Source of the DNA: Parcubacteria group bacterium
GTDB taxonomy: Bacteria > Patescibacteriota > Patescibacteriia > Buchananbacterales > UBA6539
Direction of reading: 5' to 3'
Length of the DNA: 64,000 nt
Assembly: GCA_002687175.1 (NCBI GenBank)
Contig: NYZP01000002.1
Coordinates: 1,171-65,170 of the forward strand
This document shows, piece after piece, positions 12,825 to 54,493 of this stretch; position 1 is the stretch's first letter, and every line of letters begins with the position of its first letter. The position numbers and the translations under genes are program-made. The notes below the pieces were generated by a model. It searched no databases and was not told the DNA's origin. It saw only the letters and a program-made list of their open reading frames with translations.

Positions 12825-13328
12825 TGCTAATTACAAATGTATGCGAATGCTGCGAATGGTACTAATAAACTGATTTACAATATAGTCAACATGGCGTTAA
12901 CTACTCATAAATGCTATGTTGCAAAAAGTAATCTATCCTGAGTTATCCTATCAAATTATTGGCACCTGTTTTCAAGTACATAATGAGCTGGGTCGCTTTT
13001 GTAAGGAAAAGCAATATGCTGATAGATTAGAACAATTATTGAGAGCTAATCAGCTAAGGTATAGCCGAGAAATAAAAATACCATTTGAATTTAGTGAAGG
13101 ACAAGTTGGTGGTAATATAGCCGACTTCTTAATAGCTAATAAAATAATTTTAGAATGTAAAGCTAAAAAATTTGTTACTAAAGATGACTATCATCAGGTG
13201 CAAAGGTACCTGAAAGCGACAAAAATAAAATTGGGTTTAATTGTAAATTTTAGAACTGTCTATTTAAGTCCAAAGAGAGTCATTAATTATTATTTGTAGT
13301 ATTCGTATAAATTCGTAAATTAGTATTA
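12822..13328 (+). mobile_element. Inverted-repeat-bounded element carrying the GxxExxY gene
   Basis: Arms 12822-12858 and 13291-13328 are imperfect reverse complements; interrupts the conserved yidD-yidC adjacency. Confidence 0.6.
12916..13299 (+). CDS. GxxExxY protein (PD-(D/E)xK-like)
   Basis: VHNELGRFCKEKQY, ADFLI, IILECKA, QVQRYL, LGLIVNF. Confidence 0.92.
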   Translation: MLQKVIYPELSYQIIGTCFQVHNELGRFCKEKQYADRLEQLLRANQLRYSREIKIPFEFSEGQVGGNIADFLIANKIILECKAKKFVTKDDYHQVQRYLKATKIKLGLIVNFRTVYLSPKRVINYYL

Positions 13329-13335
13329 TATTTTT

Positions 13336-14106
13336 ATGATTGAGCTATTTAACACATTTCTGGTAGTACCATTACTTAACCTTCTAGTATTTTTTTATAA
13401 TGTTATTCCAGGCCAAGATCTAGGAGTAGCGATTATTTTTTTAACCGTGGCCATTAAATTAGCTTTATATCCCCTGTCTCATCAATCAATCAAGTCACAA
13501 AAAGCTCTTCAGGATCTTCAGCCTAAAATGGAAGCGATAAAGAAACAGTTTAAGAATGACAAGGAAAGGCTGGCCAAAGAAATGATGGCGCTGTATAAAT
13601 CGGAAAAGGTTAATCCCCTATCTTCCTGTTTACCACTTTTAATTCAGTTACCTTTCTTGATCGCGGTGTTTCATGTATTTCGTACCGGAGTTGATTCAGC
13701 CAGCCTGGACTTACTATATTCATTCGTCGCAAATCCGGGAGAGTTAAATCCAATCGCTTTTGGTTTTTTAAATTTATCTAATCCTAATATAGTTCTGGCA
13801 GCTTTAACCGGTGGAGCTCAATTTTGGCAAACTAAGATGCTAATGTCTAAACGACAGCCAAAAGTCCCCGGGGCCAAGGATGAAGACATGATGGCAACCA
13901 TGAACAAACAGATGCTTTATTTTATGCCAATCATTACAGTAGTGATTGGGGCAACACTGCCAGCCGCCCTAATCTTATACTGGTTACTGACAACTGTTTT
14001 AACGGTGGCACAACAAAAATTGATGTTTTCCAAGAAGGGACAGAAGGAGAAAGACGATAATCAAGTAGAAATAATTGATAAACCTAATGAGAATCCTCAG
14101 CAGTGA
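13336..14106 (+). CDS. yidC: Membrane protein insertase YidC/Oxa1
   Basis: LQPKMEAIKK, NPLSSCLPLLIQLPFL, LYW. Confidence 0.96.
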   Translation: MIELFNTFLVVPLLNLLVFFYNVIPGQDLGVAIIFLTVAIKLALYPLSHQSIKSQKALQDLQPKMEAIKKQFKNDKERLAKEMMALYKSEKVNPLSSCLPLLIQLPFLIAVFHVFRTGVDSASLDLLYSFVANPGELNPIAFGFLNLSNPNIVLAALTGGAQFWQTKMLMSKRQPKVPGAKDEDMMATMNKQMLYFMPIITVVIGATLPAALILYWLLTTVLTVAQQKLMFSKKGQKEKDDNQVEIIDKPNENPQQ

Positions 14107-14371
14107 ATTAATCAATTTGCCAGTGTATGCCCAAAATGGACAAAATTTGGGTAGAATAGATTCTTTTGAGGTTGACGTTGATGCTCACACCATCTTACGT
14201 TATCATATTAAAACAGGCTTGATTAAGGGCTTATGGCATGAACAGTTAGTGGTTGCTCAAAGCCAAGTTATCTCTATTTCAAAAACTAAAATGGTGGTAA
14301 AGGACGGAGTTATTAAAAAACCGGCCCTTAGTCTTAAAAAGGCGAGGTTGGCATCTCCGGCTACTAAGTAA
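14087..14371 (+). CDS. PRC-barrel domain protein
   Basis: SELINLPVY...GQNLGRIDSFEVD pattern; ATG at 14087. Confidence 0.8.
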   Translation: MRILSSELINLPVYAQNGQNLGRIDSFEVDVDAHTILRYHIKTGLIKGLWHEQLVVAQSQVISISKTKMVVKDGVIKKPALSLKKARLASPATK

Positions 14372-14435
14372 CAGTTTACAAACAAAAAAGCCGAGACATT
14401 GAATTGTCTCGGCTTTTTCTATTCAGTTTTATGGG

Positions 14436-15200
14436 TTAAAACATTCGATTCTTGCCGACTATTACCCTTAATTTTTTAGGAACGATTTCAATTTTAACCG
14501 GAGTTTTTAGAATTTTTTGTCCATCGGTGACTACTGGCAATGAGTCTCTACTTCGTATGGAGATTTTTTTAAAAGGGATGACACTACTGTTGGCCGAAGT
14601 TGTTTTTTTAAATATTTGTGAAAAGCCAGAGGCTAGGGGTTTAATCAGAATTTCCAGTAGACCATCTTGGGGGTTGAAATAACTGCCCTGGCCTGGCGCG
14701 GCCACTAACAATGGACGGAGATTGCAAATACTAATTTCATTATGGTTCTGCGGAGTAACTTTAAATTTATCTTCACACTCGATAGTTACTTGCCCGCCAG
14801 AAACTGTTATGCTGGACAGAAAATAAGTATTATTAACTTTGCCCAAGTCAATTTTTTCAATAATTCTGGCCGCTAAAACGTTGCAGGCATCCTCTTGGGA
14901 TGGAATACCCAGTATGGTGGCTATTTTATTTTCTGCCCCGACTGGAATATAACCAACAGCGGTATTAAACTGCGCAGCCAGATTGATGATCTGACTAAAT
15001 GTTTTGTCATTGCCTACTACCACTATAGTTTTAATACCGTTTCTCACCTCTTCAGTTAATAGCTCGCCAATGTTTCTTAATGGCGACAGGCGAAATATTT
15101 TGCCACCAATACCAAGATCAGTTAATCTGGTTTCTATTTTAGCCAGAAAGCTGTTGTATTTTTTATTATTTAAAAAGGAGTCGTAAAGATGCAAGTACAT
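14436..15200 (-). CDS. Diacylglycerol-kinase-like family protein
   Basis: VVVGNDKTF, GYIPVG..NKIA..LGI, IDLGKVN, DGLLEI. Confidence 0.8.
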   Translation of the reverse strand: MYLHLYDSFLNNKKYNSFLAKIETRLTDLGIGGKIFRLSPLRNIGELLTEEVRNGIKTIVVVGNDKTFSQIINLAAQFNTAVGYIPVGAENKIATILGIPSQEDACNVLAARIIEKIDLGKVNNTYFLSSITVSGGQVTIECEDKFKVTPQNHNEISICNLRPLLVAAPGQGSYFNPQDGLLEILIKPLASGFSQIFKKTTSANSSVIPFKKISIRSRDSLPVVTDGQKILKTPVKIEIVPKKLRVIVGKNRMF

Positions 15201-15222
15201 AAGATTTTTATATCACTAGAGG

Positions 15223-15657
15223 CTATTTTACTTTTACGGGAGTACTAATTGGAATTTCTTTAATTTTTTGCTTAACGATTTTTTCTTTATCATCAATTTT
15301 TTCCAATTTAGTTTTTTTGTCTTCGCCAGCAATGCATTTACCATTAACGCTGGCTCCTGGCGCTATGGTTAAAGTTTTGGTTTTAATATCACCAAATACC
15401 CTGGCCGTATTAGTCAGCTCTAGACTCTCTTTTATCTTTACGTTGCCTTGGATTTCTCCAGCGACCATGGCGTTAGTCGCCGAGATCTTGGCGTATACTT
15501 TAGCGTCCTTACCGATATGTAAATTTTTCTCGGTTTTAATGCTTCCCGACACTACCCCCTCAACGATGATATCTCCATTAGCCACGAAGTTACCCTCGAC
15601 ATGTACTGAGGGACCTATCATTGTTTCGACGCTATCGCCTTCTTTTTCTTTAAACAT
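15223..15657 (-). CDS. Bactofilin (polymer-forming cytoskeletal protein)
   Basis: ETMIGPSVHVEG...IIVEGVVSGSI...VFGDIKTKTLTIAPGA beta-helix pattern. Confidence 0.9.
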   Translation of the reverse strand: MFKEKEGDSVETMIGPSVHVEGNFVANGDIIVEGVVSGSIKTEKNLHIGKDAKVYAKISATNAMVAGEIQGNVKIKESLELTNTARVFGDIKTKTLTIAPGASVNGKCIAGEDKKTKLEKIDDKEKIVKQKIKEIPISTPVKVK

Positions 15658-15799
15658 AGTTTTTAGGTTATTTTTAAAATATTTGTTTATTTACTTTTCT
15701 ATTTTAGTTTCTTTTATGGTAATTGTCAAAGCCTTGATTTTTTGAGATTAATCTGCTAGACTAGATTAATCAATAAAATTAAATCACCATTAATATTCT

Positions 15800-16069
15800 A
15801 TGCCAATAAAAAAGTCAGCTTTTAAAGCCCTGACTCAATCGAATAAAAAACAGCAACTGAACAAAAAGGTTAAAAGTGACCTGTCGGCTTTGGTTAGAAA
15901 AGTTCGTAAATCAGTTGATGCCAAGGACAGTGCTAAAGCCGCAGACTGGCTAAAGCAAACGGTAAAGAAGATTGATCGAGCTGCTCAAAAAGGGATTATT
16001 AAAAAAAATACCGCTGCTCGGAAAAAATCTAGATTATCCAAGGTGGTTAATAATTTAGCAAAAAAGTAA
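15800..16069 (+). CDS. rpsT: 30S ribosomal protein S20
   Basis: MPIKKSAFK, IDRAAQKGIIKKNTAARKKSRL. Confidence 0.97.
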   Translation: MPIKKSAFKALTQSNKKQQLNKKVKSDLSALVRKVRKSVDAKDSAKAADWLKQTVKKIDRAAQKGIIKKNTAARKKSRLSKVVNNLAKK

Positions 16070-16101
16070 ACCAGTGGCAACAGGGCGTTGTCCTGCCTCC
16101 C

Positions 16102-17097
16102 CTACTGTTTTATAACAAGCAAGTCAAATAACACCTCAGGATTAGTTTGACTTGTTTTTATTTTATAATCAATGGTCATCAAGTGATGATAAATTTTTTT
16201 CAGGTCGGCGACTTGATGGTTTCTGACCTGGGCAACAGTTTTTTTAATAACAAAAGGATGTAGGCCTAATTGATAGGTTAATCTGTTGGAGACATAGCCA
16301 CTACCGTTCTCTTCAACAAAATTTTTGACTAAAAGTAGATTTTTGAACTGCCAAATAATTTTAGATAGTAGCTCGGTTGGACTGGTACCGCTCTTCAGCT
16401 GGTCAGATATCAATTTTAAGGCCAGATGTTTATTTTTTTGGCCCAAGGCTTCGGTCAATCTAAAAATATCATCATCAAGCTTAGTTTTAACTAACTGCTC
16501 AACATCCTCTACGGTAATTTGTTTGTCTGGTGAGTAGGCTATCAGTTTATTGATCTCCGAATTCATCTGCCACAAGTTATTGCCCACTAGATCAGTAAGT
16601 AGTCTGGCGGCTCGTGGTTCAATTTCTCCGCCTCGGCTTTGAATTTCATTTGCCGTAAAACGATAAACCTCGGTTTCATCAAGTAGCTTAAACTCTTGGG
16701 CAAATTTTTCTTTTTGTAGTCGAGCTAAAAGCAGACCACTGCTTTTAGTACCAGCCTTGGACCTAGCTTTTTTGGTCTTGTCATTACCCAGCCCCCCTTC
16801 CCAAAAAACAATAACAGTATCCTTTGAACCATCTTTGTCCAAGACCTCCAGGACTTCTTCCTGGATTTTTTTCTTTTTGTTTTTGGAAATTAAGTCCTCC
16901 ACTATTATTAACCGTTTTTTGGCTAAAAATGGTGGAGCGGCGACTGATGTAGCAAATTGAGCAGTATCCAGTTTTGGACCATCAAGCGTTTCAATATTTA
17001 AAGCTGACTTATCAATATCAGCAATAAATTTGCCCTTAATGGCTTTAAGTTTTTGTCGTGATCTAAAGGTATCAGGGCCGTAAAGAAAGATAATCAT
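16102..17097 (-). CDS. holA: DNA polymerase III delta subunit
   Basis: IIFLYGPD, PFLAKKRLII, EINKL, HPFVIKK, DYKIKT; next to rpsT. Confidence 0.92.
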   Translation of the reverse strand: MIIFLYGPDTFRSRQKLKAIKGKFIADIDKSALNIETLDGPKLDTAQFATSVAAPPFLAKKRLIIVEDLISKNKKKKIQEEVLEVLDKDGSKDTVIVFWEGGLGNDKTKKARSKAGTKSSGLLLARLQKEKFAQEFKLLDETEVYRFTANEIQSRGGEIEPRAARLLTDLVGNNLWQMNSEINKLIAYSPDKQITVEDVEQLVKTKLDDDIFRLTEALGQKNKHLALKLISDQLKSGTSPTELLSKIIWQFKNLLLVKNFVEENGSGYVSNRLTYQLGLHPFVIKKTVAQVRNHQVADLKKIYHHLMTIDYKIKTSQTNPEVLFDLLVIKQ

Positions 17098-17184
17098 AGT
17101 AGATCTATTTTAGCAAAATTTATTATAAAATTACAGGGTAACTAATTTTGGCTAGTAATTGATTAATGGTAAAATGATTGTATT

Positions 17185-18597
17185 ATGACAGATTTAATAA
17201 AGTTATATACCGATGAGCAGGATAAACTGAAAAAATACCAGGAAAAAGATCCTGGTCTGGTAACCCCTCAAAGGAATTTTAGTTATCAAGAGATTTTAAG
17301 TTATATTGGCATTAATGTTGATTTTGGTTTTTTACCCCAGGGGTATCTTAATTTTTATCATCAAGATTTTATAGTTGAAGAGGTTGATAGTAAAGGTGAG
17401 GCAATTACCATTGAGCCAGGCAGTCTTGATTTAGTTACTGCTAAACCAGGTGATAAAACATTATATGCCCAGATGGTTAAGGTTGGCCTGTCAACCCTGG
17501 AAGCCAGAGAAAATTTAGCTCAAGCTTTAGGGGTACCCGTTAAACAGATCAATTATGGCGGAATTAAAGACAAGGTAGCTATTACCTCCCAGCAGATTTC
17601 TCTGAGGGGTATAAACCCAGAAAAAGGTGAGGAGATAGTTAAAGGACTTAAAGTTTCAGGTCTTTATTTAAAAAATTTATCCTGGGGCAAAGGTATTATC
17701 GAAAAAGGTAAAATTAGAGGTAATCGGTTTATCATTACGGTGAGAACGCCATCAACTCTTGGTCAAGGTTGGCTTGATCAAGCTCTAGATCGAGTTAAAG
17801 ACGGGTTTAATAATTTTTATTATTTGCAACGTTTTGGTTCTCCTCGGTTATTAAGCCATACCTTAGGTAAGCTGATCCTTCAGCAAGAATATGAAGCGGT
17901 GGTTAAAACTTTTTTAACAAGCACCGGAGTGCAAGATGTGCCACTGTTAAGCCGTATCAGAGAACAAGCAGTTAATGATTTTGGCAATTGGCAAAAGTTA
18001 GAAGAACTGTTCTCTGAATTACCCTATACTTTTCGTTTAGAATTAGGCTTGATCAGATATTTAGCCAAGAAGCCCGATGATTATTTAGGGGCCTTGAAAA
18101 GTATTGAGGACCAAACAACCTTATGGGTTTATGCCTATGCCAGTTATTTATTTAATCTGCATTTATCCAGCTCAGTTACTAAGGGAGAAACTTTGGTAGC
18201 AGAATTGCCCTTATTATTAAATCCTCAGCATACGGCGATCAAAACTTACGCTCAGAAATTAAGTGAGGACAATATTTTGGATCTAAAGAAATCAGCCCAG
18301 GCCTTTTTTGGTCGTGATGTTTTACATCAGAAAAATGTGTGTTTAACCAAGGTACCAGTTAAAGTTATTAATACTAAAATTATTGAAAAAGGAGTGGTCA
18401 TTGCTTTTGAGTTACCAGTTGGTGCTTATGCCACCACCTTTTTAACTCATTTATTTTCCCTTTATCGAGGATTGCCAATTCCCGAGTGGTTGGACAAGAC
18501 TAAGCATGACGGTAAAAAAATATTAAACCTTGGTTCAGTGGCACCAGTTGAAGAAGTTTTAGGAGAATACATATTTAGTCAGGACAAAGGCCAATAA
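17185..18597 (+). CDS. truD: tRNA pseudouridine(13) synthase family
   Basis: DFIVEE, GIKDKVAITSQ, GNRFIIT, NFYYLQRFG, FELPVGAYAT. Confidence 0.9.
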   Translation: MTDLIKLYTDEQDKLKKYQEKDPGLVTPQRNFSYQEILSYIGINVDFGFLPQGYLNFYHQDFIVEEVDSKGEAITIEPGSLDLVTAKPGDKTLYAQMVKVGLSTLEARENLAQALGVPVKQINYGGIKDKVAITSQQISLRGINPEKGEEIVKGLKVSGLYLKNLSWGKGIIEKGKIRGNRFIITVRTPSTLGQGWLDQALDRVKDGFNNFYYLQRFGSPRLLSHTLGKLILQQEYEAVVKTFLTSTGVQDVPLLSRIREQAVNDFGNWQKLEELFSELPYTFRLELGLIRYLAKKPDDYLGALKSIEDQTTLWVYAYASYLFNLHLSSSVTKGETLVAELPLLLNPQHTAIKTYAQKLSEDNILDLKKSAQAFFGRDVLHQKNVCLTKVPVKVINTKIIEKGVVIAFELPVGAYATTFLTHLFSLYRGLPIPEWLDKTKHDGKKILNLGSVAPVEEVLGEYIFSQDKGQ

Positions 18598-18678
18598 AAA
18601 TTTTATAATTTATTTTTTACAAAGAGAAGAGCCGACCTACAACATTGTTGCAAGTCGGCTCTTTTTGTTCTTTTCGGG

Positions 18679-19368
18679 TTATTCGGTCTCGTTTTCTTCG
18701 TCTTCAGAGACCGAGGTTTCCACGGCAATTGCCTTGAGGGTTTTGTCCCTCACTACGATCGCGTTTTGAGGAGTGTCGTAACACTGCTCCTTGTCATTCC
18801 AGCTACGGCCAACCATGTTGACTGTCGCACAGCCGTCGGGGTTGTTCCAGACGTGGCAGTACTTCCATGTCGTGTTGGCCAATTCGCGGAGCGCTTCAAC
18901 CGTTTTTCGCAGCAGTTTCGGAATTTTTTCCGAAGGCTCAACTGCCCGATAGGTCAGACAAACCACGAATTTCGGTTTCGGCGAATGCGATTGGCCGGCC
19001 CGTTTGTTAGGCTGATGCCTAAACCAATGGGCGTCGGCGATGACGAAATCATTGTTGGCAAAACCGCTTCGCAGGGCCGCGACCTGGACGTTGAGGAGAT
19101 TGTCAATGACATGTTCTCCCGAGTCCACTCGCTCTTCACGCTTTCTGCTAACCTGAGCCTTCTCCGCCATTCCGTTAACCGCGGCCCAAATGGCGTGTTG
19201 GGAATCAACTTCCTTGTCGCCTTCCCTGGCCTTTTCCGGAATGCCGGCCGGGATGTGCTTGGGGTTAGTGAAGTTAAACTTCACTAGGACACGGTCGGGC
19301 GCTCCTTTGACTGCGCTAAGGCTTACCGTTCCGGTTCCTTCATCCTGCTGCATGGCTGTCGCCTCCAT
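18679..19368 (-). CDS. Hypothetical protein (GC-richer than surroundings)
   Basis: 229-aa ORF with AAGGAG upstream, TTGACA-17-TATTCT promoter candidate near 19543 and a downstream terminator. Confidence 0.75.
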   Translation of the reverse strand: MEATAMQQDEGTGTVSLSAVKGAPDRVLVKFNFTNPKHIPAGIPEKAREGDKEVDSQHAIWAAVNGMAEKAQVSRKREERVDSGEHVIDNLLNVQVAALRSGFANNDFVIADAHWFRHQPNKRAGQSHSPKPKFVVCLTYRAVEPSEKIPKLLRKTVEALRELANTTWKYCHVWNNPDGCATVNMVGRSWNDKEQCYDTPQNAIVVRDKTLKAIAVETSVSEDEENETE

Positions 19369-19647
19369 TTCAGATCTCCTTCGTTGTTTTTCAGTAATGG
19401 TTGGATTTTGAGTTTTCCGTGAACCACAGTAACTAACACATTTTTAGCACAAAAATTGAATTACCTGCCAAAAATGTGTTAGTTAAGTAAGATAAATTTT
19501 AACGAACAATACATTAGAATAGCATATTCTGGTAATTTTGTCAATCCCCCCACCTTTTAGTTAAAAGGTGGGGGACTAAAAAAATAGCTAGAATTAGCTA
19601 TTTTTAATACTTAGGCTAGAGGTATTTTTATTGGATAATTAGATTGG

Positions 19648-22419: not shown

Positions 22420-22494
22420 GGTTTAGGTTCTTAGGTTTTTAGCTCTTTAGTTTATTAATCAAATCCCTAAGAAGCTAAAAAGCTACTACCTAGC
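22420..22494 (-). repeat. Gene-less 8-mer tandem/inverted repeat hairpin abutting the polA start codon
   Basis: 22421-22442 GTTTAGGTTCTTAGGTTTTTAG identical to 54033-54054; opposite arm 22465-22494. Confidence 0.8.
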
Positions 22495-22546
22495 ATTATA
22501 ACATTCTTCGGAGATTCAAGCCTATTTATAGGGTAGTTATAGGTAT

Positions 22547-40950: not shown

Positions 40951-42431
<1,481 letters not shown>

Positions 42432-43624: not shown

Positions 43625-43701
43625 CGGGGTGTGGCGCAGTTGGCTAGCGCGCGTCGTTTGGGACGATGAGGTCGTGGGTTCGAGTCCCACCACCCCGACC
43701 A
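43625..43701 (+). tRNA. tRNA-Pro(TGG)
   Basis: Cloverleaf, anticodon loop TT-TGG-GA, encoded CCA. Confidence 0.96.
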
Positions 43702-43744
43702 TCACAACATAGCGTATTTATTATTGTTTGGACAGTATTAAAAT

Positions 43745-44097
43745 TGTCATCCCTGCGAAAGCAGGGATCCAGAAACGCTATGATGACCTATTACGTTTAT
43801 ATACTTGCCAGTAAAAGAAATGGAACGCTCTATGTTGGTGTTACTAATGACTTGGCAAGAAGGGCCTATGAGCATAGAGCAGGCTTAATTAAAGGTTTTA
43901 CAAAAAAATACGGGGTTAAGGTGCTAGTTTATTTTGAAGAGTTTGACGATATTGGTTTTGCAATTCAGAGGGAGAGAAATTTAAAAAAATGGAAACGTGA
44001 CTGGAAATTAAATCTAATTGAGAGTTCTAATCCGGACTGGGAAGATTTATACTTTGAATTAGATTAATACTGGATCCCTGCTTTCGCAGGGATGACA
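43745..44097 (+). mobile_element. GIY-YIG gene bounded by perfect 28-bp REP-like inverted repeats
   Basis: TGTCATCCCTGCGAAAGCAGGGATCCAG (43745-43772) and its exact reverse complement (44070-44097). Confidence 0.75.
43780..44067 (+). CDS. GIY-YIG nuclease family protein
   Basis: YYVYILAS..NGTLYVGVTNDL.RR..EH, AIQRERNLKKWKR.WK, NPDWEDL. Confidence 0.93.
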   Translation: MMTYYVYILASKRNGTLYVGVTNDLARRAYEHRAGLIKGFTKKYGVKVLVYFEEFDDIGFAIQRERNLKKWKRDWKLNLIESSNPDWEDLYFELD

Positions 44098-45201: not shown

Positions 45202-45779
45202 CGGGAGTAATTTTTAACGCCGGTGCCGACGTTGCTGAAGAGAACCTAGGCTGTCCCAACGTTTGGGATGGTGGTGCACAAAAAGGTATCGCCTCTTTTA
45301 GCCCCGTGGCGACTCACGAGATACTTGAAGCAGTCGAGAGAGAAGTTGGCGTTGATGCCAACATTTTGGTCAAGCTCTCGCCTTTTTCTAACCCGGCAGA
45401 CCTGAGCGAAGTTGCCTCAGTGCTTGGAGAGTCTAAGTTAGTCAAAGCGGTAGTTACCTGTAATACTTTTCCCAACGCTTTTGCCATTGACGGAGATGGC
45501 GATCCCTGGATTTCCCCTGGCGGTGGTTTGGCGGGAATGGCAGGACCGGCTCTTAAGCCAATTGGCATGGGTCAAGTTAAGCAGTTTCGGGCTCAGCTTC
45601 CAGAGCGTATTCAGATCGTTGGCGTTGGTGGAATTCGTTCAGGGCAGGATGTTCTTGATTATTTACGAGCCGGTGCGGACGCGGTGGCCATTGCCACCAG
45701 CTTAGTGGAGGAAGGTCCGGCGGTGTTCAGCAGAATACTTTCCGAGTATGTCGATTTGGTCGAATCGGGAGAAAATTAA
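45156..45779 (+). pseudogene. pyrD: 5'-truncated dihydroorotate dehydrogenase (class 1)
   Basis: In-frame IVSAAG...ENLGCPNV upstream of the track ORF; VKLSP, NT, AGMAG, GVGGI; N-terminal part and start codon absent. Confidence 0.8.
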
Positions 45780-45924
45780 TCCGGAGGAGTTGACAGTAGT
45801 TACTGTCGTTGGCTTGATTGACTGAAAATGGTTGATCAAGTTTTTTTTGTCACTATTGACAAAAAAGGTTATATATGCTAAGGTGTTTAACTTTCTCAAA
45901 AGGGAATTTTTTAATACTTTATCT

Positions 45925-46446
45925 ATGAAAACCATTAAATCACTGAGAAAAATTAGTAATCATAAACTTGAACTATTAGTGCTTTTTGCTCTGGTTTTTG
46001 AGTTTATTTTTCCTCGCTACAGTTTAGCGGTTGATCCAATTGAGCTGGATCAAAGCATTATGTTGCCCGAATTAGTCATCAAGTCTGTTATAGAGGAAAA
46101 TAGTGAGGTTTCTTTAATCGCTCCATCTAGAGAAGTTGAAATTTTAAATACTTATCACGTACCAATCACCGCTTATTCCTCAACTGTTGACCAAACTGAC
46201 AGCACTCCTTGTATTACCGCCAATGGTTTCGATTTGTGTGCGCACAATCAAGAAGATGTTATTGCTGCTAATTTTTTACCATTTGGTACTAAGGTCAGAA
46301 TTCCCGAATATTATGGTGATCGGATTTTTACTGTTCAGGACAGAATGAATGCTCGATATTACTACCGAGCTGATATCTGGATGAAGGTCAGAGCTGATGC
46401 TATCAAATGGGGCTTGATTTATACAACTATTGAAGTTGTTGACTAA
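45925..46446 (+). CDS. 3D-domain (cell-wall, MltA-like) protein
   Basis: TAYSS..QTDSTPCITANG, AANFLPFGT, VQDRMN, ADIW. Confidence 0.88.
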   Translation: MKTIKSLRKISNHKLELLVLFALVFEFIFPRYSLAVDPIELDQSIMLPELVIKSVIEENSEVSLIAPSREVEILNTYHVPITAYSSTVDQTDSTPCITANGFDLCAHNQEDVIAANFLPFGTKVRIPEYYGDRIFTVQDRMNARYYYRADIWMKVRADAIKWGLIYTTIEVVD

Positions 46447-46538
46447 ATTGAATAAAAAACATGGTGGCTTGTCGCCGAATCTTTTAGTAGAGGTTAGGTT
46501 GATTTAAAAGCCTTTTTTTGTTAGACTAATCTAGTCCT

Positions 46539-46612
<74 letters not shown>

Positions 46613-46709
46613 AATTAGCAAATGGCAAATAGCATTTTGCAAATCTGCTACAATCGATTAGCCATTAGCCATTAGCCATTAGCCATTAGCCATTAGCCAT
46701 TAGCCATTT
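46613..46709 (+). repeat. Heptamer repeat hairpin, (TTAGCCA)x7 arm abutting the infB ATG
   Basis: Seven exact units 46658-46706; short complementary arm TAGCAAATGGCAAATAGC upstream. Confidence 0.9.
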
Positions 46710-48701
46710 ATGAATGTAACCGAATTAGCTAGACGTTTAAAGATACCCAGCAAAGAACTGCTCGAAATTTTACCAGCAGTTGGTTTTGATATTGGTCGTC
46801 GAGCAATTAAAATTGACAACCGTCAAGCTCAACGAATTGTTGAACAGTGGCCTCGTCTTTATGCTAAGTATAAAGAATCAATTGATGAAGAAAAAGAGGA
46901 AGAAATTCTTGCCGAAGAAATACCGGCCGAGCAAAAACAGGTCACAATTCCTCAAACTGTCAGAGTCAAGGATTTTGCTGATATGCTAAAGTTACCTTTG
47001 CCAAAAGTTATGGCTGAGTTGATGAAAAATGGTGTGTTGTCTTCAATGAATGAGGAAATTGATTTTGACACTGCCGCTATTGTTGGTGAAGAGCTGGGCT
47101 ATGAAATATTGTCTGGATCCTCTAAAGGTGAGGAAAATGAAAAAACTACTTCTGAAAAACTGGAAACTTTATTAACCGAAGATGACAAAGCTAAGCTAGA
47201 ATCTCGACCGCCGGTAATCGTTATAATGGGTCATGTTGACCATGGTAAGACTAAGTTACTTGATGCCATTCGAACAACTAATGTGGTGGCTGGAGAAAGT
47301 GGTGGAATCACTCAGCACATTGGAGCCTATCAGGTGAAAAAAAATAATAAGTTAATTACGTTTATTGATACTCCCGGTCATGAAGCTTTTACCACTATGC
47401 GTTCTCGGGGAGCTAGAGTTGCCGATATTGCAATATTGGTGATTGCCGCTGATGACAGTATTCAACCTCAAACAAAAGAGTCAATTAAAATTATTAAATC
47501 GGCCGGACTACCAATGATTGTGGCGATTAATAAAATAGACAAACCAGACGCTAATCCAGAAAAAGTTAAGCAGGATTTAGCCAGCCTTAATTTAACTCCC
47601 GAAGAATGGGGTGGTAGCACAATTATCGTACCAATTTCCGCTAAGGAAGGTACTGGCCTTGATGATTTATTAGAAATGGTTTTATTGGTTGCTGAGACTG
47701 AAAAAGATCAAATTTTGGCTAATCCAAATAAATCGGCAGTCGGTACTATTATTGAATCCCATGTTAATCCAGGCGAAGGGCCAGTGGCCACTATTTTAGT
47801 ACAAAGTGGTACTTTAAAAACCGGTGATCAAGTTGAAGTGGCTGGCACGTTTTATGGCCGAATTAGAGTAATGAAAGATTATAATAACAAGAATATTGAT
47901 TCAGTAGGTCCTTCAGCGCCAGTTAAAATTTTAGGACTAAAGGCTGCTCCCAGTGTTGGTGATATTTTGCAGGTAACGTCAACCGGTGGTAAAAATAAAA
48001 AAGTAAAAAAATATGAACTGCGTCAACAAGCGGTGGCCTATAGTAAGTTAGCAGAAGTCAGCGAAAATGACAGCAAAGATTTAAAACCTTTAAATATAGT
48101 TTTAAAAGCCGATGTTTTAGGTTCTCTAGAGGCGATCATTGCTTCTTTAACTAAACTGGAACATCCAGAAGTTTTTTTAAATATTGTTAGCAAGGGCTTA
48201 GGTAATATTACCGAGGGAGACATTAATCGGGCTGAGGCAAGCCAGGCAATTATTATTGGTTTTCATACCAAGCCATCTCAACAAGTTGAAAATTTAGCCA
48301 AGGAAAAAAAGGTTACGATTGAACTTTATGAGGTTATCTATAAATTAATTGAAGAAGTTAAAGCTAAACTGGAACAATTGTTATCTCCAGAAGTTATCAA
48401 AACGGAACTCGGTAAATTGAAAGTTTTGGCAGTTTTTAATAAGGCTGACAAATCAATGGTAATTGGTGGTAGCGTCACTAAAGGAAAAATTATTTCCGGA
48501 GCAAAAGTAAATGTGTTACGCGACAAAAAAATAATGGCCAAAGGGGTCGTTACCCAAGTCCAAGTTAATAAGGTTGATGTCAATGAAGCAACAGCTGGTC
48601 AAGAATGTGGCCTTAAGTATGAAGGTAAGACAGTGATTACCGAAGGTGATACCTTGGAAGTGTATCAAGAGGAAATAAAGGATAAAAAATTAGACAGCTA
48701 A
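46710..48701 (+). CDS. infB: Translation initiation factor IF-2
   Basis: GHVDHGKT, GGITQHIGAY, DTPGHEAF, NKID. Confidence 0.98.
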   Translation: MNVTELARRLKIPSKELLEILPAVGFDIGRRAIKIDNRQAQRIVEQWPRLYAKYKESIDEEKEEEILAEEIPAEQKQVTIPQTVRVKDFADMLKLPLPKVMAELMKNGVLSSMNEEIDFDTAAIVGEELGYEILSGSSKGEENEKTTSEKLETLLTEDDKAKLESRPPVIVIMGHVDHGKTKLLDAIRTTNVVAGESGGITQHIGAYQVKKNNKLITFIDTPGHEAFTTMRSRGARVADIAILVIAADDSIQPQTKESIKIIKSAGLPMIVAINKIDKPDANPEKVKQDLASLNLTPEEWGGSTIIVPISAKEGTGLDDLLEMVLLVAETEKDQILANPNKSAVGTIIESHVNPGEGPVATILVQSGTLKTGDQVEVAGTFYGRIRVMKDYNNKNIDSVGPSAPVKILGLKAAPSVGDILQVTSTGGKNKKVKKYELRQQAVAYSKLAEVSENDSKDLKPLNIVLKADVLGSLEAIIASLTKLEHPEVFLNIVSKGLGNITEGDINRAEASQAIIIGFHTKPSQQVENLAKEKKVTIELYEVIYKLIEEVKAKLEQLLSPEVIKTELGKLKVLAVFNKADKSMVIGGSVTKGKIISGAKVNVLRDKKIMAKGVVTQVQVNKVDVNEATAGQECGLKYEGKTVITEGDTLEVYQEEIKDKKLDS

Positions 48702-48702
48702 A

Positions 48703-49044
48703 ATGTCTCATCGAATTTTACAGATTAATGAGCTAATTAGGCAAGAGCTTAATAACCTAATCTTAACTGAGATTGAATTGCCCAAGAATAGTTTAGCCAC
48801 TATTATAAAAGTTGAAACTTCTAAAGACTTGCGGCATGCCAAGGTTTGGTTAAGTATAATACCAACCAGTTACACTAAGAAAGTTTTAGATAGATTCAGG
48901 GGTAAAGCTGGACATTTACAATATCTGCTAAATAAAAAATTGACAATGAAGCCATTGCCTCGTTTAAGTTTTGATATTGATGAAACCGAAAGAAAAGCCG
49001 GAGGCATAGAAGAACTACTTGACCGAATTAGAGAAAAAGGTTAG
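48703..49044 (+). CDS. rbfA: Ribosome-binding factor A
   Basis: SKDLRHAKV, PRLSF; follows infB. Confidence 0.92.
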   Translation: MSHRILQINELIRQELNNLILTEIELPKNSLATIIKVETSKDLRHAKVWLSIIPTSYTKKVLDRFRGKAGHLQYLLNKKLTMKPLPRLSFDIDETERKAGGIEELLDRIREKG

Positions 49045-49055
49045 GATAGTTGGCT

Positions 49056-50027
49056 ATGGAAATTTCCGAAGTAAGTCAAAAAATTCATTCGCAAATAAAT
49101 AAAGCGGAACATATTTTACTAATTGCCCATCAAAATCCCGATGCTGACTGTTTGGGTAGTTTGGTGGTATTTAGTTCTTGGTTGGAATCTTTAAATAAGA
49201 ACCATACCAGATTTTGTTTACATCAACCACCACCAAATCTAACTTGGTTAGTTAATTTTGAACCTTTGGTTAATGACCCCGAATACTTGATCAAGCAGCC
49301 TTATGATTTGGTGATAGTTTTAGACTCTGGTGATTTAAAATATGCAGGTGTAGACAATATTTTACCAAAACTTAGTCCTCAGCCAAAAGTTATTAATATT
49401 GATCACCATGCCACTAACCAGAATTTTGGTGATATTAATCTAGTAAACACCCAATCAGTTTCGACGACCGAAATAGTTTACCAACTTTTTAAGACCTTAA
49501 AGATCAGGATTGATGCCAAGGTGGCCAGCGCGATGTTGGCAGGCATCATCTATGATACCTATAATTTTACCAACCCTAATACTAATCATCAATCATTGGA
49601 AACTGCTTCTCAGCTACTTTTGTCCGGTGCCCAGCTAGGCACTGTCAGTGATTCAATCCTAAAAACTAAAAGTATTGATACTTTAAAAATTTGGGGAGAA
49701 ATTTTAACACGCTTAAGTCACTGCCATAAATTTAATGTAGTCAGTACAGTTGTTACCCGTCAGGACTTAGCCGATAATTTAGCTGATAGTGAAGTAACCG
49801 AAGGAGTAGCTAATTTTTTAAATAATTTAACAGGCGTCAAGGCTGCGCTGATCTTACAAGAACAGGCAGACGGTTCTATCAAGGGTAGTTTTCGAACTAA
49901 TAATGACTTGATTGATGTCTCAAAATTAGCTAGAATATTAGGTGGTGGAGGCCACAAGAAGGCCGCCGGGTTTAAGATCAAAGGCCAGCTAAAAAAGACG
50001 AGAAGTGGAAGTTGGCAGATTGTGTAA
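49056..50027 (+). CDS. DHH/DHHA1 phosphoesterase (NrnA-like)
   Basis: HQNPDADCLGS, NIDHH, GGGGHKKAAG. Confidence 0.92.
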   Translation: MEISEVSQKIHSQINKAEHILLIAHQNPDADCLGSLVVFSSWLESLNKNHTRFCLHQPPPNLTWLVNFEPLVNDPEYLIKQPYDLVIVLDSGDLKYAGVDNILPKLSPQPKVINIDHHATNQNFGDINLVNTQSVSTTEIVYQLFKTLKIRIDAKVASAMLAGIIYDTYNFTNPNTNHQSLETASQLLLSGAQLGTVSDSILKTKSIDTLKIWGEILTRLSHCHKFNVVSTVVTRQDLADNLADSEVTEGVANFLNNLTGVKAALILQEQADGSIKGSFRTNNDLIDVSKLARILGGGGHKKAAGFKIKGQLKKTRSGSWQIV

Positions 50028-50030
50028 GTG

Positions 50031-50108
50031 AATATAGAATCTGGAATGTGGAATTAGGATAAAAGTCTAATCCCCTATTCCAGATTCCTAATTCCTAATT
50101 CCTATATT
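50031..50108 (+). repeat. Heptamer inverted-repeat hairpin abutting the clpP ATG
   Basis: Left TAGAATC-TGGAATG-TGGAATT, loop GGATAAAAG, right CTATTCC-AGATTCC-TAATTCC-TAATTCC. Confidence 0.85.
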
Positions 50109-50684
50109 ATGCATTTAATACCAACAGTTATCGAAAAATCAAATTACGGTGAGCGAGCCTATGATATCTATTCTCGTCTGCTTAAGGATAGAATTATTTT
50201 TCTAGGTTCACCAATTGACGACGTGGTCGCTAATACGGTTATTGCACAGCTTTTATTTTTAGAAAGCGAAGATGCTAAAAAAGATATTAAGCTTTATGTT
50301 AACAGTCCTGGTGGTTCGGTTACTTCAGGTTTAGCAATTTATGACACTATGGAATATGTTAAACCAGATATCATGACCATCTGTATCGGAACCGCTGCTT
50401 CTATGGGCGCTGTCTTATTAGCGGCTGGAGCTAAAGGAAAAAGAATAGCTTTACCCAATGCCGAAGTAATGCTACATCAGGTAATGGGTGGAGCAGAAGG
50501 TCAAGCCACTGACGTTAAGATTAGAGCGGAACATATTTTAAAAATCAAAGACCGGTTAAATTTGATTTTAGCAAAACATACCAGTCAACCGGTTAAGAAA
50601 ATTGAGGAAGATACAGATAGAGACAATTTTATGAATACCGAGCAAGCTAAAAGTTATGGTTTGGTTGACAAAATTATCAAGTAG
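50109..50684 (+). CDS. clpP: ATP-dependent Clp protease proteolytic subunit
   Basis: [29 protein letters not shown]. Confidence 0.98.
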
Positions 50685-50717
50685 TGCTAACATTGAATAA
50701 CTTTAACAACTTTAAAA

Positions 50718-51063
50718 TCTATGAACAGGAATAGTAGGTTTTGATCTGTAATAATAGAGAGCCGGGAATGGTGGAAGCCTGGCATTACCACAAAACTGAA
50801 ACGAGCCTGGGAGATGGTTTGGTGAACATTAATTAGCCAAACCCGGCAGCGTCCGTAATCAAGCGTTAACTATTATCGCTTTGTCATTCTGAACTTGATT
50901 CAGGATCTCATTGGACTGAGATAGTGAAAGCGAACAAAATTTACCGTTTACTTGACGGTTTTTTTGTTAATAAAGGTGGTACCGCGGACCTCTTGATTTA
51001 TTTTGAGATAGAATCCCGTCCTTTAGACACAATATTTATTGTGTTTAGAGGGTGGGATTTTTT
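50718..51063 (+). promoter_or_regulatory. T-box riboswitch, predicted Arg (CGA) specifier, with terminator
   Basis: AGTA and AGAGA/GGTGGAA stem I motifs; GAA-A-CGA-G (codon 50802-50804); T-box AAGGTGGTACCGCG near 50973; terminator 51012-51063. Confidence 0.88.
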
Positions 51064-51106
51064 CGTGCCCATATTAATCGTTCTTTTAAATAAGGAGAAG
51101 AGCTTT

Positions 51107-51577
51107 ATGTTTAAAGAAAAGAAAGAAGTGATTGAATTTTGTTCATTAGTTGAGAAAGATATTCCTAAGCTATATAGCCTTATGGAACCTGAGATGCGTC
51201 AAGGGAGACTTTTGCCTAGATCAATTAAAGATATAATTGGTATTACTAAGTCTATTGGTGTTCTAAGGTACAATGGTGTAATTGCCGGAACCATTGGCCT
51301 TGTTCCTTATGGACCTTGGGCTGAAATAATTATGTGGTGGGTCAACGTTAAATATCGAGGACGAAGTTTTAGTTCTCAACTACTTCATGCAGCTATTAAC
51401 GAAGCTAAGACCAAATTATTTGAATCTGTTTTTTTATGCACGACATCAGTTCGAATAAATGATTATTTGTTACTTAATGGTTTTAGTAAGATCCATAAAG
51501 ATAATGTACCCAAGGAGAAGTGGCAGGGCTATCCTGAAGGCAGAGATGCTCAAGTATTTATTACGAGACTTCTTTAG
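51107..51577 (+). CDS. GNAT acetyltransferase resembling the ArgA (N-acetylglutamate synthase) acetyltransferase domain
   Basis: G.LLPRS, AEI, YRGR, VFLCTT, GF; AAGGAG upstream; the longer track ORF only reads through the T-box. Confidence 0.7.
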   Translation: MFKEKKEVIEFCSLVEKDIPKLYSLMEPEMRQGRLLPRSIKDIIGITKSIGVLRYNGVIAGTIGLVPYGPWAEIIMWWVNVKYRGRSFSSQLLHAAINEAKTKLFESVFLCTTSVRINDYLLLNGFSKIHKDNVPKEKWQGYPEGRDAQVFITRLL

Positions 51578-51666
51578 TCTAATTTGAGGAGATTTAAAAC
51601 ACCTCCTCTTTTTCTTGACAAAAAATTTATTTGTGTTAGGATATATTTAACATTAAAAATTCAATA

Positions 51667-51777
51667 GTTATCATGAGTGCTACATGCTAAGGGTAATGGC
51701 CCAAGGGTAGCCGGCAACTCTCTCTAATTTATTTAGAGGTAGGAGTGCTAAATCCATCCCATTCTGGGGAAGATGAC
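51667..51777 (+). promoter_or_regulatory. SAM-I (S-box) riboswitch
   Basis: P1 GTTATC/GATGAC; ATGAG; AGGG..TGGCCC; GGCAACTC...GAGTGCTAAATCC; P4 CCCA-TTC-TGGG. Confidence 0.85.
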
Positions 51778-51781
51778 ATTT

Positions 51782-51810
51782 AAAAAAGCTCTTCGTCGAA
51801 GAGTTTTTTT
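51782..51810 (+). terminator. Terminator of the SAM-I expression platform
   Basis: GCTCTTC-GTC-GAAGAGT followed by T run. Confidence 0.8.
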
Positions 51811-51904
51811 GGTCTAAACGAGCCAATCTTCCCCCAAAGGTTGGCTTTTTTGGATCTTTGTTTAAACTAAGTCTTTTAACCACAACCAATAGGAGGGTTA
51901 TACT

Positions 51905-52120
51905 ATGGTGGTAGGTCCGGTAATGACGTCAGTGCAACCACTATTGAAAGAGAAACATAGACAGGCAATAGAAGCGGGGAAAATTCCTGAGGGTACCCCA
52001 TTTCGTATCAAATCTGTTCCGGCTAAGCCTAATGGAAGGAACTATCATTGCGCTGATCAAAACGGCGAAATAATTCCATGCATTGAACCAGAATGGGGCA
52101 TTCCAACTATTAGTGACTAG
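51905..52120 (+). CDS. Small hypothetical protein downstream of the SAM-I riboswitch
   Basis: AGGAGG upstream; 71 aa; terminator near 52150-52177. Confidence 0.65.
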   Translation: MVVGPVMTSVQPLLKEKHRQAIEAGKIPEGTPFRIKSVPAKPNGRNYHCADQNGEIIPCIEPEWGIPTISD

Positions 52121-52250
52121 CCTAGAAAAGGCAGTGTCACTCAATTTCGGGGACAAGATTTCTTGTTCCCTTTTTTTATTAAAAATGGCTGTCTCTTGCC
52201 AAAAATTAATAAATATGGTAGTGTATCAATGAACATAATAATTAACTGAT

Positions 52251-52479
52251 ATAGAGAATCATTCGATAGGAGATTCACTCAGAATAGGTTTAATTAAGCA
52301 GATTATTGTACTAAAACTCATTTTTCCTAACTATTTATCACCCAGGAATATCAAATTAACTTCAGGAAAAATTAGCTTCAATTACTTGACTGATGTTTTT
52401 AACATCATCTTAAAACATTTGGGTTAATCATTTTTGGTTAGCCAATCTCCTCTACAACTTAGATCGACTTGTTCTCTAT
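52251..52479 (+). ncRNA. Candidate long structured RNA (6S-like or rny leader)
   Basis: Nested long-range pairings ATAGAGAA/TTCTCTAT, TCGAT/ATCGA, AGGAGATT/AATCTCCT; no ORF; promoter candidate upstream. Confidence 0.45.
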
Positions 52480-52499
52480 CTCTTTGGAGATAGAAACGT

Positions 52500-54026
52500 A
52501 TGCAAACAATTTATTGGCTTATAGCGCTATCCTTAGGAATAATTAGTGGGATAGCTTTTGGTTATCAATTAAGAAAAATTTGGGCGGTAAAACGTCGTGA
52601 TACCATTGAAACCAAAGTTGAATCTTTACTTAATGAAGCCAAAGCAAGACAAAAAGAAATTTTGTTACAAGCTAACGACAAGGCTTTGGCAATTTTAGAT
52701 GAGTCTAAACAAGAAGGTAAAGAAAAGCAGCAAGAGTTAGTAAGATCACAACAGCGATTAGAAAAACGTGAAGGTCTTTTTGACCAACGTATCTTAGAAT
52801 TAGAAAATAAAAAGCAAGAATTAGTAGAAAAGGCAGAAAAAGTAGAAGCAGTGAAAGGTGAAATTGTTAAAATTAAAGAAGAGCAGATGGCTAAATTAGA
52901 AAAGGTTGCTAAGTTAACTAAAGAAGAGGCTAAAAATATTCTTCTAGAAAATACTGAAAAGGATATTAAGGACGATTTAGTAGGAAGAATTAAAAAACTT
53001 AACGATCAGTCATCTCTAGAGCTGGATCGTAAGGCTAGAGAATTAATGTCTTTGGCAATTCAGCGTTGCGCCGTGTCCCACGCGGCGGAAAGTACGACTA
53101 CTACTATTGATTTACCCTCAGATGAAATGAAGGGTCGAGTCATTGGTCGTGAAGGACGAAATATTAGAACGATTGAACGTTTAACCGGGGTGGAAATTAT
53201 TGTTGATGACACCCCTAACGCTATCACCGTTTCCGGGTTCTCCCCTATTAGACGGCATGTGGCCAAAAAAGCCTTGGATAAACTAGTGTTAGACGGCAGA
53301 ATTCATCCAGCTAAAATTGAAGATGCTATCGATGAAGCTAAAAAAGAATTGGCTAATGAAATTCAAGAAGCCGGCGAAAATGCTGTGTATGAATTAGGCA
53401 TAACTGGTTTAGATCCTAAATTGGTTCAAATTATTGGTCGGTTAAAATATCGAACAAGTTATGGACAGAATATTTTACAGCATTCAATTGAAATTGCTCA
53501 CCTAAGCACTCTCTTGGCAAAAGATTTGGGGGCTGATGTTACTATCGCCAGAAAGGGTGGATTGATGCATGATATTGGTAAAGCAGTTGACCATGAAGTT
53601 CAAGGGGGACATCCGGAAATTGGGTATGATATCTTAAAGAAATTTGGCGTACAGGAAGAAGTGGCTTACATTGCCAGAGGTCACCACGAGGATAATCCAA
53701 AAACCATTGAAGCTGTTATCGTAAAAGTTGCGGACGCCATTTCTGGTGCTAGACCAGGTGCCCGTAAAGATACTTACGAGCAGTATTTACAACGTCTAGA
53801 AGACCTAGAAAAAGTGGCTAACAGTTTTGACGGTGTTGAAAAAACTTATGCCATTCAAGCTGGCCGAGAAATTAGAATCTTTGTTGTGCCAAGTGAAGTT
53901 GATGATTTAGGAGCTCATAAATTGGCTAAAGAAGTGGTTAAAAAAATAGAAGCTGAATTAAAGTATCCAGGTGAAATTAAAGCAACAGTAATCCGTGAAA
54001 CTAGGATTATTGAATACGCTCGGTAG
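52500..54026 (+). CDS. rny: Ribonuclease Y
   Basis: TM, coiled coil, KH (MKGRVIGREGRNIR), HD (HDIGK), ADAISGARPGAR. Confidence 0.98.
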   Translation: MQTIYWLIALSLGIISGIAFGYQLRKIWAVKRRDTIETKVESLLNEAKARQKEILLQANDKALAILDESKQEGKEKQQELVRSQQRLEKREGLFDQRILELENKKQELVEKAEKVEAVKGEIVKIKEEQMAKLEKVAKLTKEEAKNILLENTEKDIKDDLVGRIKKLNDQSSLELDRKARELMSLAIQRCAVSHAAESTTTTIDLPSDEMKGRVIGREGRNIRTIERLTGVEIIVDDTPNAITVSGFSPIRRHVAKKALDKLVLDGRIHPAKIEDAIDEAKKELANEIQEAGENAVYELGITGLDPKLVQIIGRLKYRTSYGQNILQHSIEIAHLSTLLAKDLGADVTIARKGGLMHDIGKAVDHEVQGGHPEIGYDILKKFGVQEEVAYIARGHHEDNPKTIEAVIVKVADAISGARPGARKDTYEQYLQRLEDLEKVANSFDGVEKTYAIQAGREIRIFVVPSEVDDLGAHKLAKEVVKKIEAELKYPGEIKATVIRETRIIEYAR

Positions 54027-54493
54027 CTAGGTGTTTAGGTTCTTAGGTTTTTAGGGATTACTGCGTAATCAACATAGCGTTTTTATTCATAATAACAATG
54101 AAACGCTATGACAAAACTATTTTCTTATAAGGACTTAATTTATTGGCAACGATCAATGGATTTAGTAGTAGCTATTTATCAGTTAGCCAGCCATTTTCCT
54201 AAAACTGAAATTTATGGATTAGCATCTCAGATGAAACGATCATCAATTTCTATTCCCTCTAACGTTGCCGAAGGTAGAAGGAGAAGTAGCCGAAAAGAGT
54301 ACCGTCATTTTTTAAATATTGCTTATGCTTCTGGAGCAGAATTAGAGACCCAAATTGAGATAGTAAAAAGATTACCCTTTGGAAAAACTTTAAATTTTAA
54401 AATAGCTGATAGTTTGTTAGAAGAAGTAATGAAAATGTTAAATAAAACTTTTTCGACACTTGGCTCTAACAACCTAACAACCTAACAACCTAG
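54027..54493 (+). mobile_element. 8-mer tandem inverted-repeat element carrying the four-helix-bundle gene
   Basis: Arms 54027-54056 and 54464-54493 complementary at 25 of 30 positions; interrupts the rny-ymdB adjacency. Confidence 0.65.
54108..54485 (+). CDS. Four helix bundle protein (23S rRNA IVP-like family)
   Basis: YKDL..WQ, FPKTEIYGLASQMKRSSISIPSNVAEG, FLNIAYASGAELETQ. Confidence 0.94.
   Translation: MTKLFSYKDLIYWQRSMDLVVAIYQLASHFPKTEIYGLASQMKRSSISIPSNVAEGRRRSSRKEYRHFLNIAYASGAELETQIEIVKRLPFGKTLNFKIADSLLEEVMKMLNKTFSTLGSNNLTT

Follow-up and report, generated by a model that had tools for sequence, protein, structure and literature searches.

Several described systems use one RNA to open a hairpin in another. 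RNAIII on hla, TfoR on tfoX, and toehold switches all have an RNA that opens a hairpin hiding a start region, and T-boxes provide natural read-through of intrinsic terminators when a tRNA pairs in trans with many leaders, each a large structured leader with an antiterminator fold. In the RocR/RocC system of Legionella pneumophila, a small RNA (sRNA) with a short seed acts on a box shared by the leaders of DNA-uptake genes; it represses and needs a ProQ/FinO-domain chaperone. Passages of one review describe DsrA, RprA, and ArcZ on rpoS as natural anti-antisense sRNAs, and the sRNA antitermination treated in those passages acts against Rho (PMC6582626). With the synthetic RNAs called STARs (small transcription activating RNAs), read-through into a gene becomes possible when an RNA supplied in trans binds to the 5′ stem of the intrinsic terminator ahead of it; according to the STAR paper, sRNAs that activate transcription, whether natural or synthetic, were unknown before STARs as of 2015 (bioRxiv 10.1101/022772). 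Here we analyze a 64,000-nucleotide (nt) stretch of DNA (the window) from a Parcubacteria group bacterium (assembly GCA_002687175.1, contig NYZP01000002.1, positions 1,171 to 65,170), in which three unrelated small genes carry the same short leader element, which we call the box. We propose, with a probability of about 0.75, that a trans-encoded trigger RNA would switch on the natural-transformation (competence) regulon by base pairing with this box. In our best reading, the trigger would antiterminate and unlock the regulon, and small nuclease-type genes would hitchhike on it.

The proposed system shares parts with each of these precedents. Searches of the 1.12-Mb genome that holds the window (G000) with E. 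coli queries (tblastn, E ≤ 0.01) found no Rho and neither of the chaperones, Hfq and ProQ, on which a chaperone-dependent sRNA would rely; the rnc, era, and trxA controls matched, and distant homologues could escape such a search. STARs are engineered and use one trigger per target, whereas the system proposed here would be natural and multi-target, with a match of 11–13 nt displayed in a loop. The likeness to toehold switches and anti-antisense sRNAs is an RNA opening a start-region hairpin, but here the same trigger would also serve terminators, and no Hfq or ProQ assists it as far as detected. The reviewed antitermination by sRNAs is directed at Rho, which G000 appears to lack. Unlike in T-boxes, the ligand would be a dedicated RNA and the leader a 12-nt box, and unlike RocR, the trigger RNA is placed to activate, in a genome with no ProQ match. 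Neither Rfam nor the literature searched, with most subscription journals outside its coverage, held a match to the whole architecture or a description of the shared motif, which an earlier reading of the window from its letters alone (the sequence-only reading) had also put forward as possibly undescribed. The building blocks have precedents.

The sequence-only reading had seen, directly ahead of the three genes, a bipartite motif whose halves pair over the start codon. All six half-sites, the spacers of 10, 56, and 17 nt, and the three start codons (12916, 43780, and 54108) were recovered, coordinates included. The gene identities were upheld: a GxxExxY gene (PD-(D/E)XK-like, 127 amino acids (aa), 12916–13299, between yidD and yidC; TIGR04256/PF13366), a GIY-YIG gene (95 aa, 43780–44067, between tRNA-Pro and tRNA-Gly; PF01541), and a four-helix-bundle gene of the 23S rRNA intervening-sequence protein family (125 aa, 54108–54485, between rny and ymdB; TIGR02436/PF05635), all on the + strand, as are their boxes and lock arms. 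Box copy 1 (12886–12897) is the 5′ arm of the GxxExxY lock and has one A-to-G change predicted to pair as G:U with the trigger loop; the 3′ arm, with the start codon inside, lies at 12909–12921. Copy 2 (43704–43715) lies directly 3′ of tRNA-Pro (43625–43701) and outside the left repeat of the GIY-YIG element, with a start-codon-containing 3′ arm at 43772–43785, and copy 3 (54069–54080) is canonical, its corresponding arm lying at 54100–54111. Each of the three leaders is predicted to fold with its AUG paired, as had been claimed (z = −4.4, −5.0, and −4.0; none of 200 shuffles folds as well). The three window genes represent the translational, or lock, form.

What is conserved among the three leaders is the box, an element of 11–12 nt. 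The two-part pattern occurs three times in the window, confined to these genes as the sequence-only reading had it, and four times in the genome. For the 10-mer of its 5′ half, the genome has 12 copies, and an order-4 Markov model expects 0.86. The bipartite motif does not hold as a conserved unit, because only the 5′ half is conserved and the 3′ half is whatever closes the hairpin, elsewhere usually a terminator arm. A 12-letter box pattern gave 16 matches in G000 against one for the control, and, summed by hand, 179 against seven across its family, where it occurs in 18 of 18 genomes; it is rare in 12 more distant genomes. An 11-letter pattern gave 201 matches against 19 in nine genomes. The 120 of these loci that were retrieved are 120 distinct sites, 97 of them outside long frames by a crude rule and hand count, and one box is common to 15–37 sites per genome.

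The small genes behind the box in G000 are all five four-helix-bundle genes, the only GxxExxY gene, five of nine GIY-YIG genes, and one Y1-transposase-like gene. Among 84 four-helix-bundle genes of the family, selected on protein family alone, 60 have a box within 260 nt upstream (≤1 mismatch); none of the 84 control windows has one, and one of the 32 genes in other families does. This box is mostly absent from GxxExxY genes in the class's other families and from four-helix-bundle genes beyond the family.

The box is not restricted to small genes. DprA, ComEC, ComFC, ComM, and YraN figure as transformation proteins in the relevant passages of one paper (PMC13663708), and in G000 a box lies within about 1.1 kb upstream of each of dprA, comEC, comM, comF, and yraN, with a small gene or domain intervening in four. 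At the pth-dprA junction, a box (≤2 mismatches) overlies a terminator-like hairpin in 13 of the 14 visible family cases by hand count, and the 14th has one with ≤3 mismatches; in family f2, the junction has a box in 0 of 6 cases. Among the competence genes whose leaders were examined, the shared cis element stands ahead of dprA, comEC, comF, comM, yraN, and ssb, and it therefore marks a natural-transformation regulon. The sequence-only reading had assigned the system to the small-gene elements as a start-codon lock per se, and this part of it finds no support, because the same box stands at host transformation genes and would mostly work there through terminators. Its own alternative of host-imposed control, which it coupled to silencing, came nearer the mark.

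Several observations concern what else accompanies these boxes (L numbers denote analyzed loci, C numbers contigs, and f numbers genome families). Contig C13 of G000 has, after a box terminator, an in-frame fusion of GIY-YIG with YraN (275 aa; L583:1623-2447, − strand), and in L111 a Y1-transposase-like domain is apparently fused to YraN; passenger genes can therefore merge with the transformation nuclease. A protein of 66–69 aa without a Pfam match recurs after box terminators (L147, L153, L352, L378, and L084) and is a candidate competence protein. A box is found at a tyrosine integrase with an N-terminal SAM-like domain in L036, L090, L110, and L117, which suggests recombinase expression during competence.

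The box is found in two structural contexts. Among the 63 family four-helix-bundle leaders with a box, the 61 with a called start comprise 38 locks, 16 terminators, and seven that fit neither class, six of the seven being the long leader of a lamin-tail-domain operon. In most lock leaders, the box lies about 36 nt before the AUG. Holding the box unpaired in silico lowers the cost of opening the ribosome footprint from 14.1 to 4.3 kcal/mol in the 38 lock leaders, the sequestered and freeable start region expected of a toehold switch, compared to 3.9 to 3.5 kcal/mol in 13 terminator leaders; these energies compare lock with terminator leaders among those classed. Lock leaders pair in several registers, and the 3′ half given by the sequence-only reading is one solution among several. 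The terminator form has two features expected of STAR targets: an intrinsic terminator that separates the target from a promoter-bearing gene upstream of it, and a trans RNA complementary both to a linear stretch and to the terminator 5′ stem, here about 9 nt unpaired and 3–5 nt of stem.

The two forms differ in what lies behind them. Downstream of the small gene, ten of the 16 terminator cases lead into comM, comEC, yraN, or dprA, compared to none of the 38 lock cases; four of the others lead into one small unknown protein and two are unassigned. In 28 lock cases the next gene has a Pfam name, mostly a housekeeping one (ymdB, htpX, leuS, pheT, topA, nusA, guaB, metK, rplI, ruvA, recA, and ssb among them). 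The lock form may be used inside housekeeping operons because a terminator there would cut off the genes behind it and so be harmful. The position of the box, often 30–40 nt before the AUG, together with two extracytoplasmic function (ECF) sigma factors encoded in G000, would also suit a promoter element of an alternative sigma factor, in the manner of ComX and the cin-box, with transcripts that begin inside the hairpin and escape it. We regard this as scarcely credible: no conserved second upstream element is evident in the printed sites, and the complementary loops and their joint change in family f20, described below, would be left unexplained.

One arrangement combines elements of both sides of the proposed switch. 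On contig C23 of G000 (18900–18990, L592) and in about 11 relatives, a sigma70 promoter is followed by a 23–25 nt trigger complement with a terminator, a second box terminator, and the lamin-tail-domain operon. This could be a double attenuator, with the short terminated RNA serving as a trigger sponge.

Some apparent boxes are oriented opposite to the genes around them; on the strand of those genes, the sequence is the box complement, held in an invariant loop atop long, freely varying stems. The search for a trans-encoded complementary RNA that the sequence-only reading had proposed thus led to a separately promoted locus. In G000, it lies outside the window on contig C7 (+ strand), with a promoter at about 4633–4660, operator-like sites at 4676–4699 and 4786–4807, and a loop at 5169–5192. 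The promoter is conserved and of the sigma70 type, and is followed at a fixed 43–44 nt by a quasi-palindromic site, with a second site about 110 base pairs (bp) on and a DnaA-box-like word. The predicted trigger RNA has one to three long stems, each with the box complement in its invariant loop. Trigger loops are present in 15 of 20 family genomes: a 22-mer loop search matched 17, three of which have only a sense long-complement leader, and a variant loop adds one genome more. Of 117 operator matches in metagenomes, 33 have a promoter, and of these 33, 23 show a recognizable loop and three an ssb gene, the rest being short or unexplained; no trigger loop was found in the viral contigs searched.

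All 25 distinct loop hairpins fold better on the promoter strand, and in family f1 the G:U pairs number 139 versus 35. Among 16 aligned stem copies, 15 of 22 pairs changed on both sides, a score reached by 0 of 500 shuffles, although relatedness is a caveat to this figure. With the Rfam 15 covariance models, no family matches the trigger RNA, the matches being just rRNA, tRNA, and two below threshold, and the T-box model matches neither the three window leaders nor the seven loci searched that have trigger or long-complement sites.

Open reading frames (ORFs) and partial repeats accompany the trigger in places. Some loci have a small ORF between operators and loop that is either GreA/B C-terminal-like or a four-helix-bundle gene, and in many genomes the predicted trigger transcript includes a stand-alone GreA/GreB C-terminal-like ORF (L216:1290-1570 region, L249:3828-4055, L211, and L225). 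Loci L165, L136, and L206 have nested partial copies of the loop unit broken by other hairpins, which suggests duplication and decay of trigger modules. A full f1-type promoter-operator-loop unit occurs in the distant family f27 (G166; L234/L601), possibly acquired by transfer.

The duplex of the trigger loop with two of the window boxes is predicted at −18.5 and −18.8 kcal/mol, compared to 9.7 and 8.9 for their locks. Some leaders complement the loop over 23–25 nt, and most duplexes are 11–13 bp. Because G000 encodes RNase III (59114–59860 of the window, − strand; a possible processor of long stems), long stems enclose the small genes, and some locks have little toehold, the trigger might instead pair with the box and work by RNase III cleavage or by decay, so that the leader is processed or the enclosed gene removed. 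We give this little credence. Cleavage cannot account for terminator read-through into genes not yet transcribed, and a duplex of 11–13 bp, the usual length here, is short for RNase III.

If the loop reads the box by base pairing, the two should change together between families, and family f20 offers a real test of such a joint change in trans. Its loop is a wholly different sequence, which was read first, and the complement was predicted before leaders were searched. The predicted complement lies over terminators directly ahead of yraN in five of six genomes (four by Pfam, one by a near-identical leader), and also ahead of DUF559, Y1, and metallo-beta-lactamase genes. All 12 exact matches to the 12-mer are either loops (six) or leaders (six), with the loop in all six genomes, and the word is absent from G000. 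What the sequences establish is the box with its targets and its two structural settings, the gene for the complementary loop RNA, and the f20 joint change. The sequence-only reading had argued for co-regulation of the three genes, a shared structure keeping them off, and probable release by a common trans RNA; the complementary locus, and loops and leaders that change together between families, bear this out.

Family f3 is a weak second case. Its loop has a two-base variant, which is mirrored in a terminator leader, a long-complement leader, and the dprA leader of the same genome, and in one leader of a second f3 genome. As a count, the f3 pattern told nothing when searched throughout the order: among the 30 loci retrieved, the one from the f3 genome alone is intergenic. 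For two genomes (L248 and L249), a guessed loop was rejected, because the predicted leader motif occurs 36 times versus 35 for the control and the stretch is a plain long hairpin.

The f20 result bears on two other explanations. The box could be the site of an RNA-binding antiterminator protein, following BglG, ANTAR, or CsrA logic, with the complementary locus a decoy read from the other strand; the terminator arms that the box overlaps would fit, as would the short sigma70-driven unit with a sense box before the lamin-tail-domain operon in about 12 genomes. Such a protein is nonetheless improbable, in that promoter and G:U asymmetry assign the loop RNA to the antisense strand in all 25 cases, the f20 box is wholly different yet loop-complementary, and no candidate protein was found. 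A pause site for a NusG paralogue was also considered and rejected, G000 having a single NusG. Alternatively, the loop RNA could act as a guide, with the box as the DNA target or junction at which small genes move, as in bridge-RNA or integron systems, with regulation secondary. The small genes are indeed patchy insertions beside the box (the pth-dprA junction is seen with and without a four-helix-bundle gene), a tyrosine integrase gene has a box in several genomes, and part of the f1 loop fits the integron core consensus. Yet boxes precede dprA, comF, comEC, yraN, and ssb without an insertion, and each is single and oriented and goes with a terminator or a start codon. No closing core site is paired with them, the f20 sequence lacks an integron-like core, and no recombinase gene adjoins the loop locus, so that we consider a guide role distinctly unlikely.

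Taken together, these observations support a two-state model for the regulon. In the OFF state, as sequence and predicted folds show, the last bases of the box pair into an intrinsic terminator that follows a housekeeping gene and precedes a transformation gene, or, in the alternative form, into a hairpin burying an AUG that lies about 36 nt further downstream. Transcription of the stem-loop trigger RNA would start at a sigma70-type promoter bearing two operator-like sites spaced by about 110 bp, and the loop of this RNA would capture the box's unpaired 5′ part on the nascent mRNA and invade the stem, permitting read-through or ribosome loading. Passenger genes (four-helix-bundle, GxxExxY, GIY-YIG, DUF559, and Y1-transposase-like) would sit either behind an existing terminator switch or, with their own lock, inside housekeeping operons; behind a box terminator or lock, they would therefore be made only while DNA is taken up. 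Transcription of the trigger, co-transcriptional pairing, activation, the role of the regulators, and the benefit to the passengers are what we infer from this arrangement.

How the trigger itself is controlled is a weaker part of the model. The loop locus usually follows a two-gene operon encoding an asparaginase-like protein and a 204-aa protein, and the same operator-like site lies ahead of this operon in most families examined. The N-terminal part of the 204-aa protein resembles Rcl/DNPH1 deoxynucleotide hydrolases (E = 8.5e-4), with an Atlas lead, PF05014, on 11% of one cluster, and the protein finds some match in 50 of the 151 genomes of the class. The two proteins may bind the operators and may couple the switch to deoxynucleotide supply; DNA uptake when nucleotides are short, sensed by the 204-aa protein, would be one form of this. 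In family f85 (L609–L611 and L617), an operator-bearing promoter lies before long AT-rich leaders and lipoprotein-like genes, with no loop identified.

A number of observations weigh against activation by a trigger RNA. No trigger loop was found in five of the 20 family genomes (87–98% complete), four of which are box-rich; the locus often ends at contig breaks, which might apply to these five as well. Families f25 and f32 have a second ssb behind the promoter otherwise found at the trigger, and two genomes have a Gre-like ORF there, with no loop seen in either case. The tail of the 204-aa protein has, by eye, a strand-helix-helix pattern like that of ribbon-helix-helix proteins, but its best match, HicB, is not significant (E = 0.06–0.09), and the Atlas has no usable match for this C-terminal part. 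In the leaders, the free toehold is short or absent for GxxExxY and comF, where nearly the whole box is paired, and present in others, and blocking the box in silico raises AUG unpairing only to 0.05–0.32. Of the internal changes in 19 variant boxes, 13 preserve pairing as G:U and five break it (a hand count, with transitions common anyway). The box is missing from 21 of the 84 family four-helix-bundle genes and four of the nine small GIY-YIG genes of G000, and it is also ahead of genes that are not competence-specific, namely rpsF, ssb, ftsK, and surface-protein genes, and of the lamin-tail-domain operon. When one mismatch is allowed, the f20 pattern gives 37 matches against 26 for the control, with nine of 29 printed sites inside ORFs, and the raw counts for the f3 pattern are 19 against 21, so that context alone separates either pattern from its control. 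Three genomes outside f3 have leaders with the f3-type box too, which is why the f3 covariation is weak.

The passengers are also bounded by repeats. Small scattered genes inside inverted repeats are familiar from GIY-YIG genes with palindromes like repetitive extragenic palindromic (REP) sequences, from REP-associated tyrosine transposases (RAYTs) and the REP doublets that form hairpins (REPINs), and from rRNA intervening-sequence proteins. To our knowledge, a common leader tying such genes to the competence regulon is not part of their descriptions, and no paper on one was found in the literature searched. In the window, repeats enclose each of the three genes, as the sequence-only reading had noted, at 28 to about 30 bp; the 38 bp of its upper range was not seen. 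The GIY-YIG repeats (43745–43772, a small hairpin by itself, and 44070–44097; no strand assigned) are perfect over 28 bp. Those around the GxxExxY gene (left arm 12822–12866, beginning at the yidD stop codon; right arm 13296–13332) and the four-helix-bundle gene (left arm 54024–54058, of short tandem units and beginning at the rny stop codon; right arm 54464–54495), all + strand, are imperfect, about 28–30 bp with G:U pairs, with predicted duplexes of −31 and −33 kcal/mol.

Other elements were observed in passing. Box-free GIY-YIG genes (G000 C30:38873, C15:246, and C1:195905) represent a second insertion style, placed next to or inside the duplicated ends of structural RNAs, namely tRNAs and, as judged by eye, an RNase P-like RNA. 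The window has a T-box leader at 50712–51026 (Rfam RF00230, 126.7 bits) and, at 724–1143, a membrane-type ORF of 139 aa with no family match inside a 20-bp inverted repeat (695–714 and 1139–1158). A further repeat pair lies at 1326–1351 and 1598–1623, and a hairpin near 1218 contains a weak box-like word.

More broadly, we think the odds somewhat better than even that this is a chaperone-free, multi-target system of the STAR and toehold kind, in which the trigger would be the master activator of competence in several Patescibacteria families, seeds and targets would drift into orthogonal codes, and small nuclease-type genes would have captured the key so as to be expressed only at DNA uptake, which may be how they spread. 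If true, a natural RNA would activate a whole regulon by blocking intrinsic terminators, a mechanism otherwise mainly engineered or, in another form, seen in T-boxes. The loop-box pairs of different families would then be ready-made orthogonal switches. The model would also explain how four-helix-bundle, GxxExxY, GIY-YIG, and DUF559 genes sit harmlessly in essential operons, and when they act. For the Patescibacteria, it would be the first concrete model of competence control within the literature searched, with a lead to the inducing signal.

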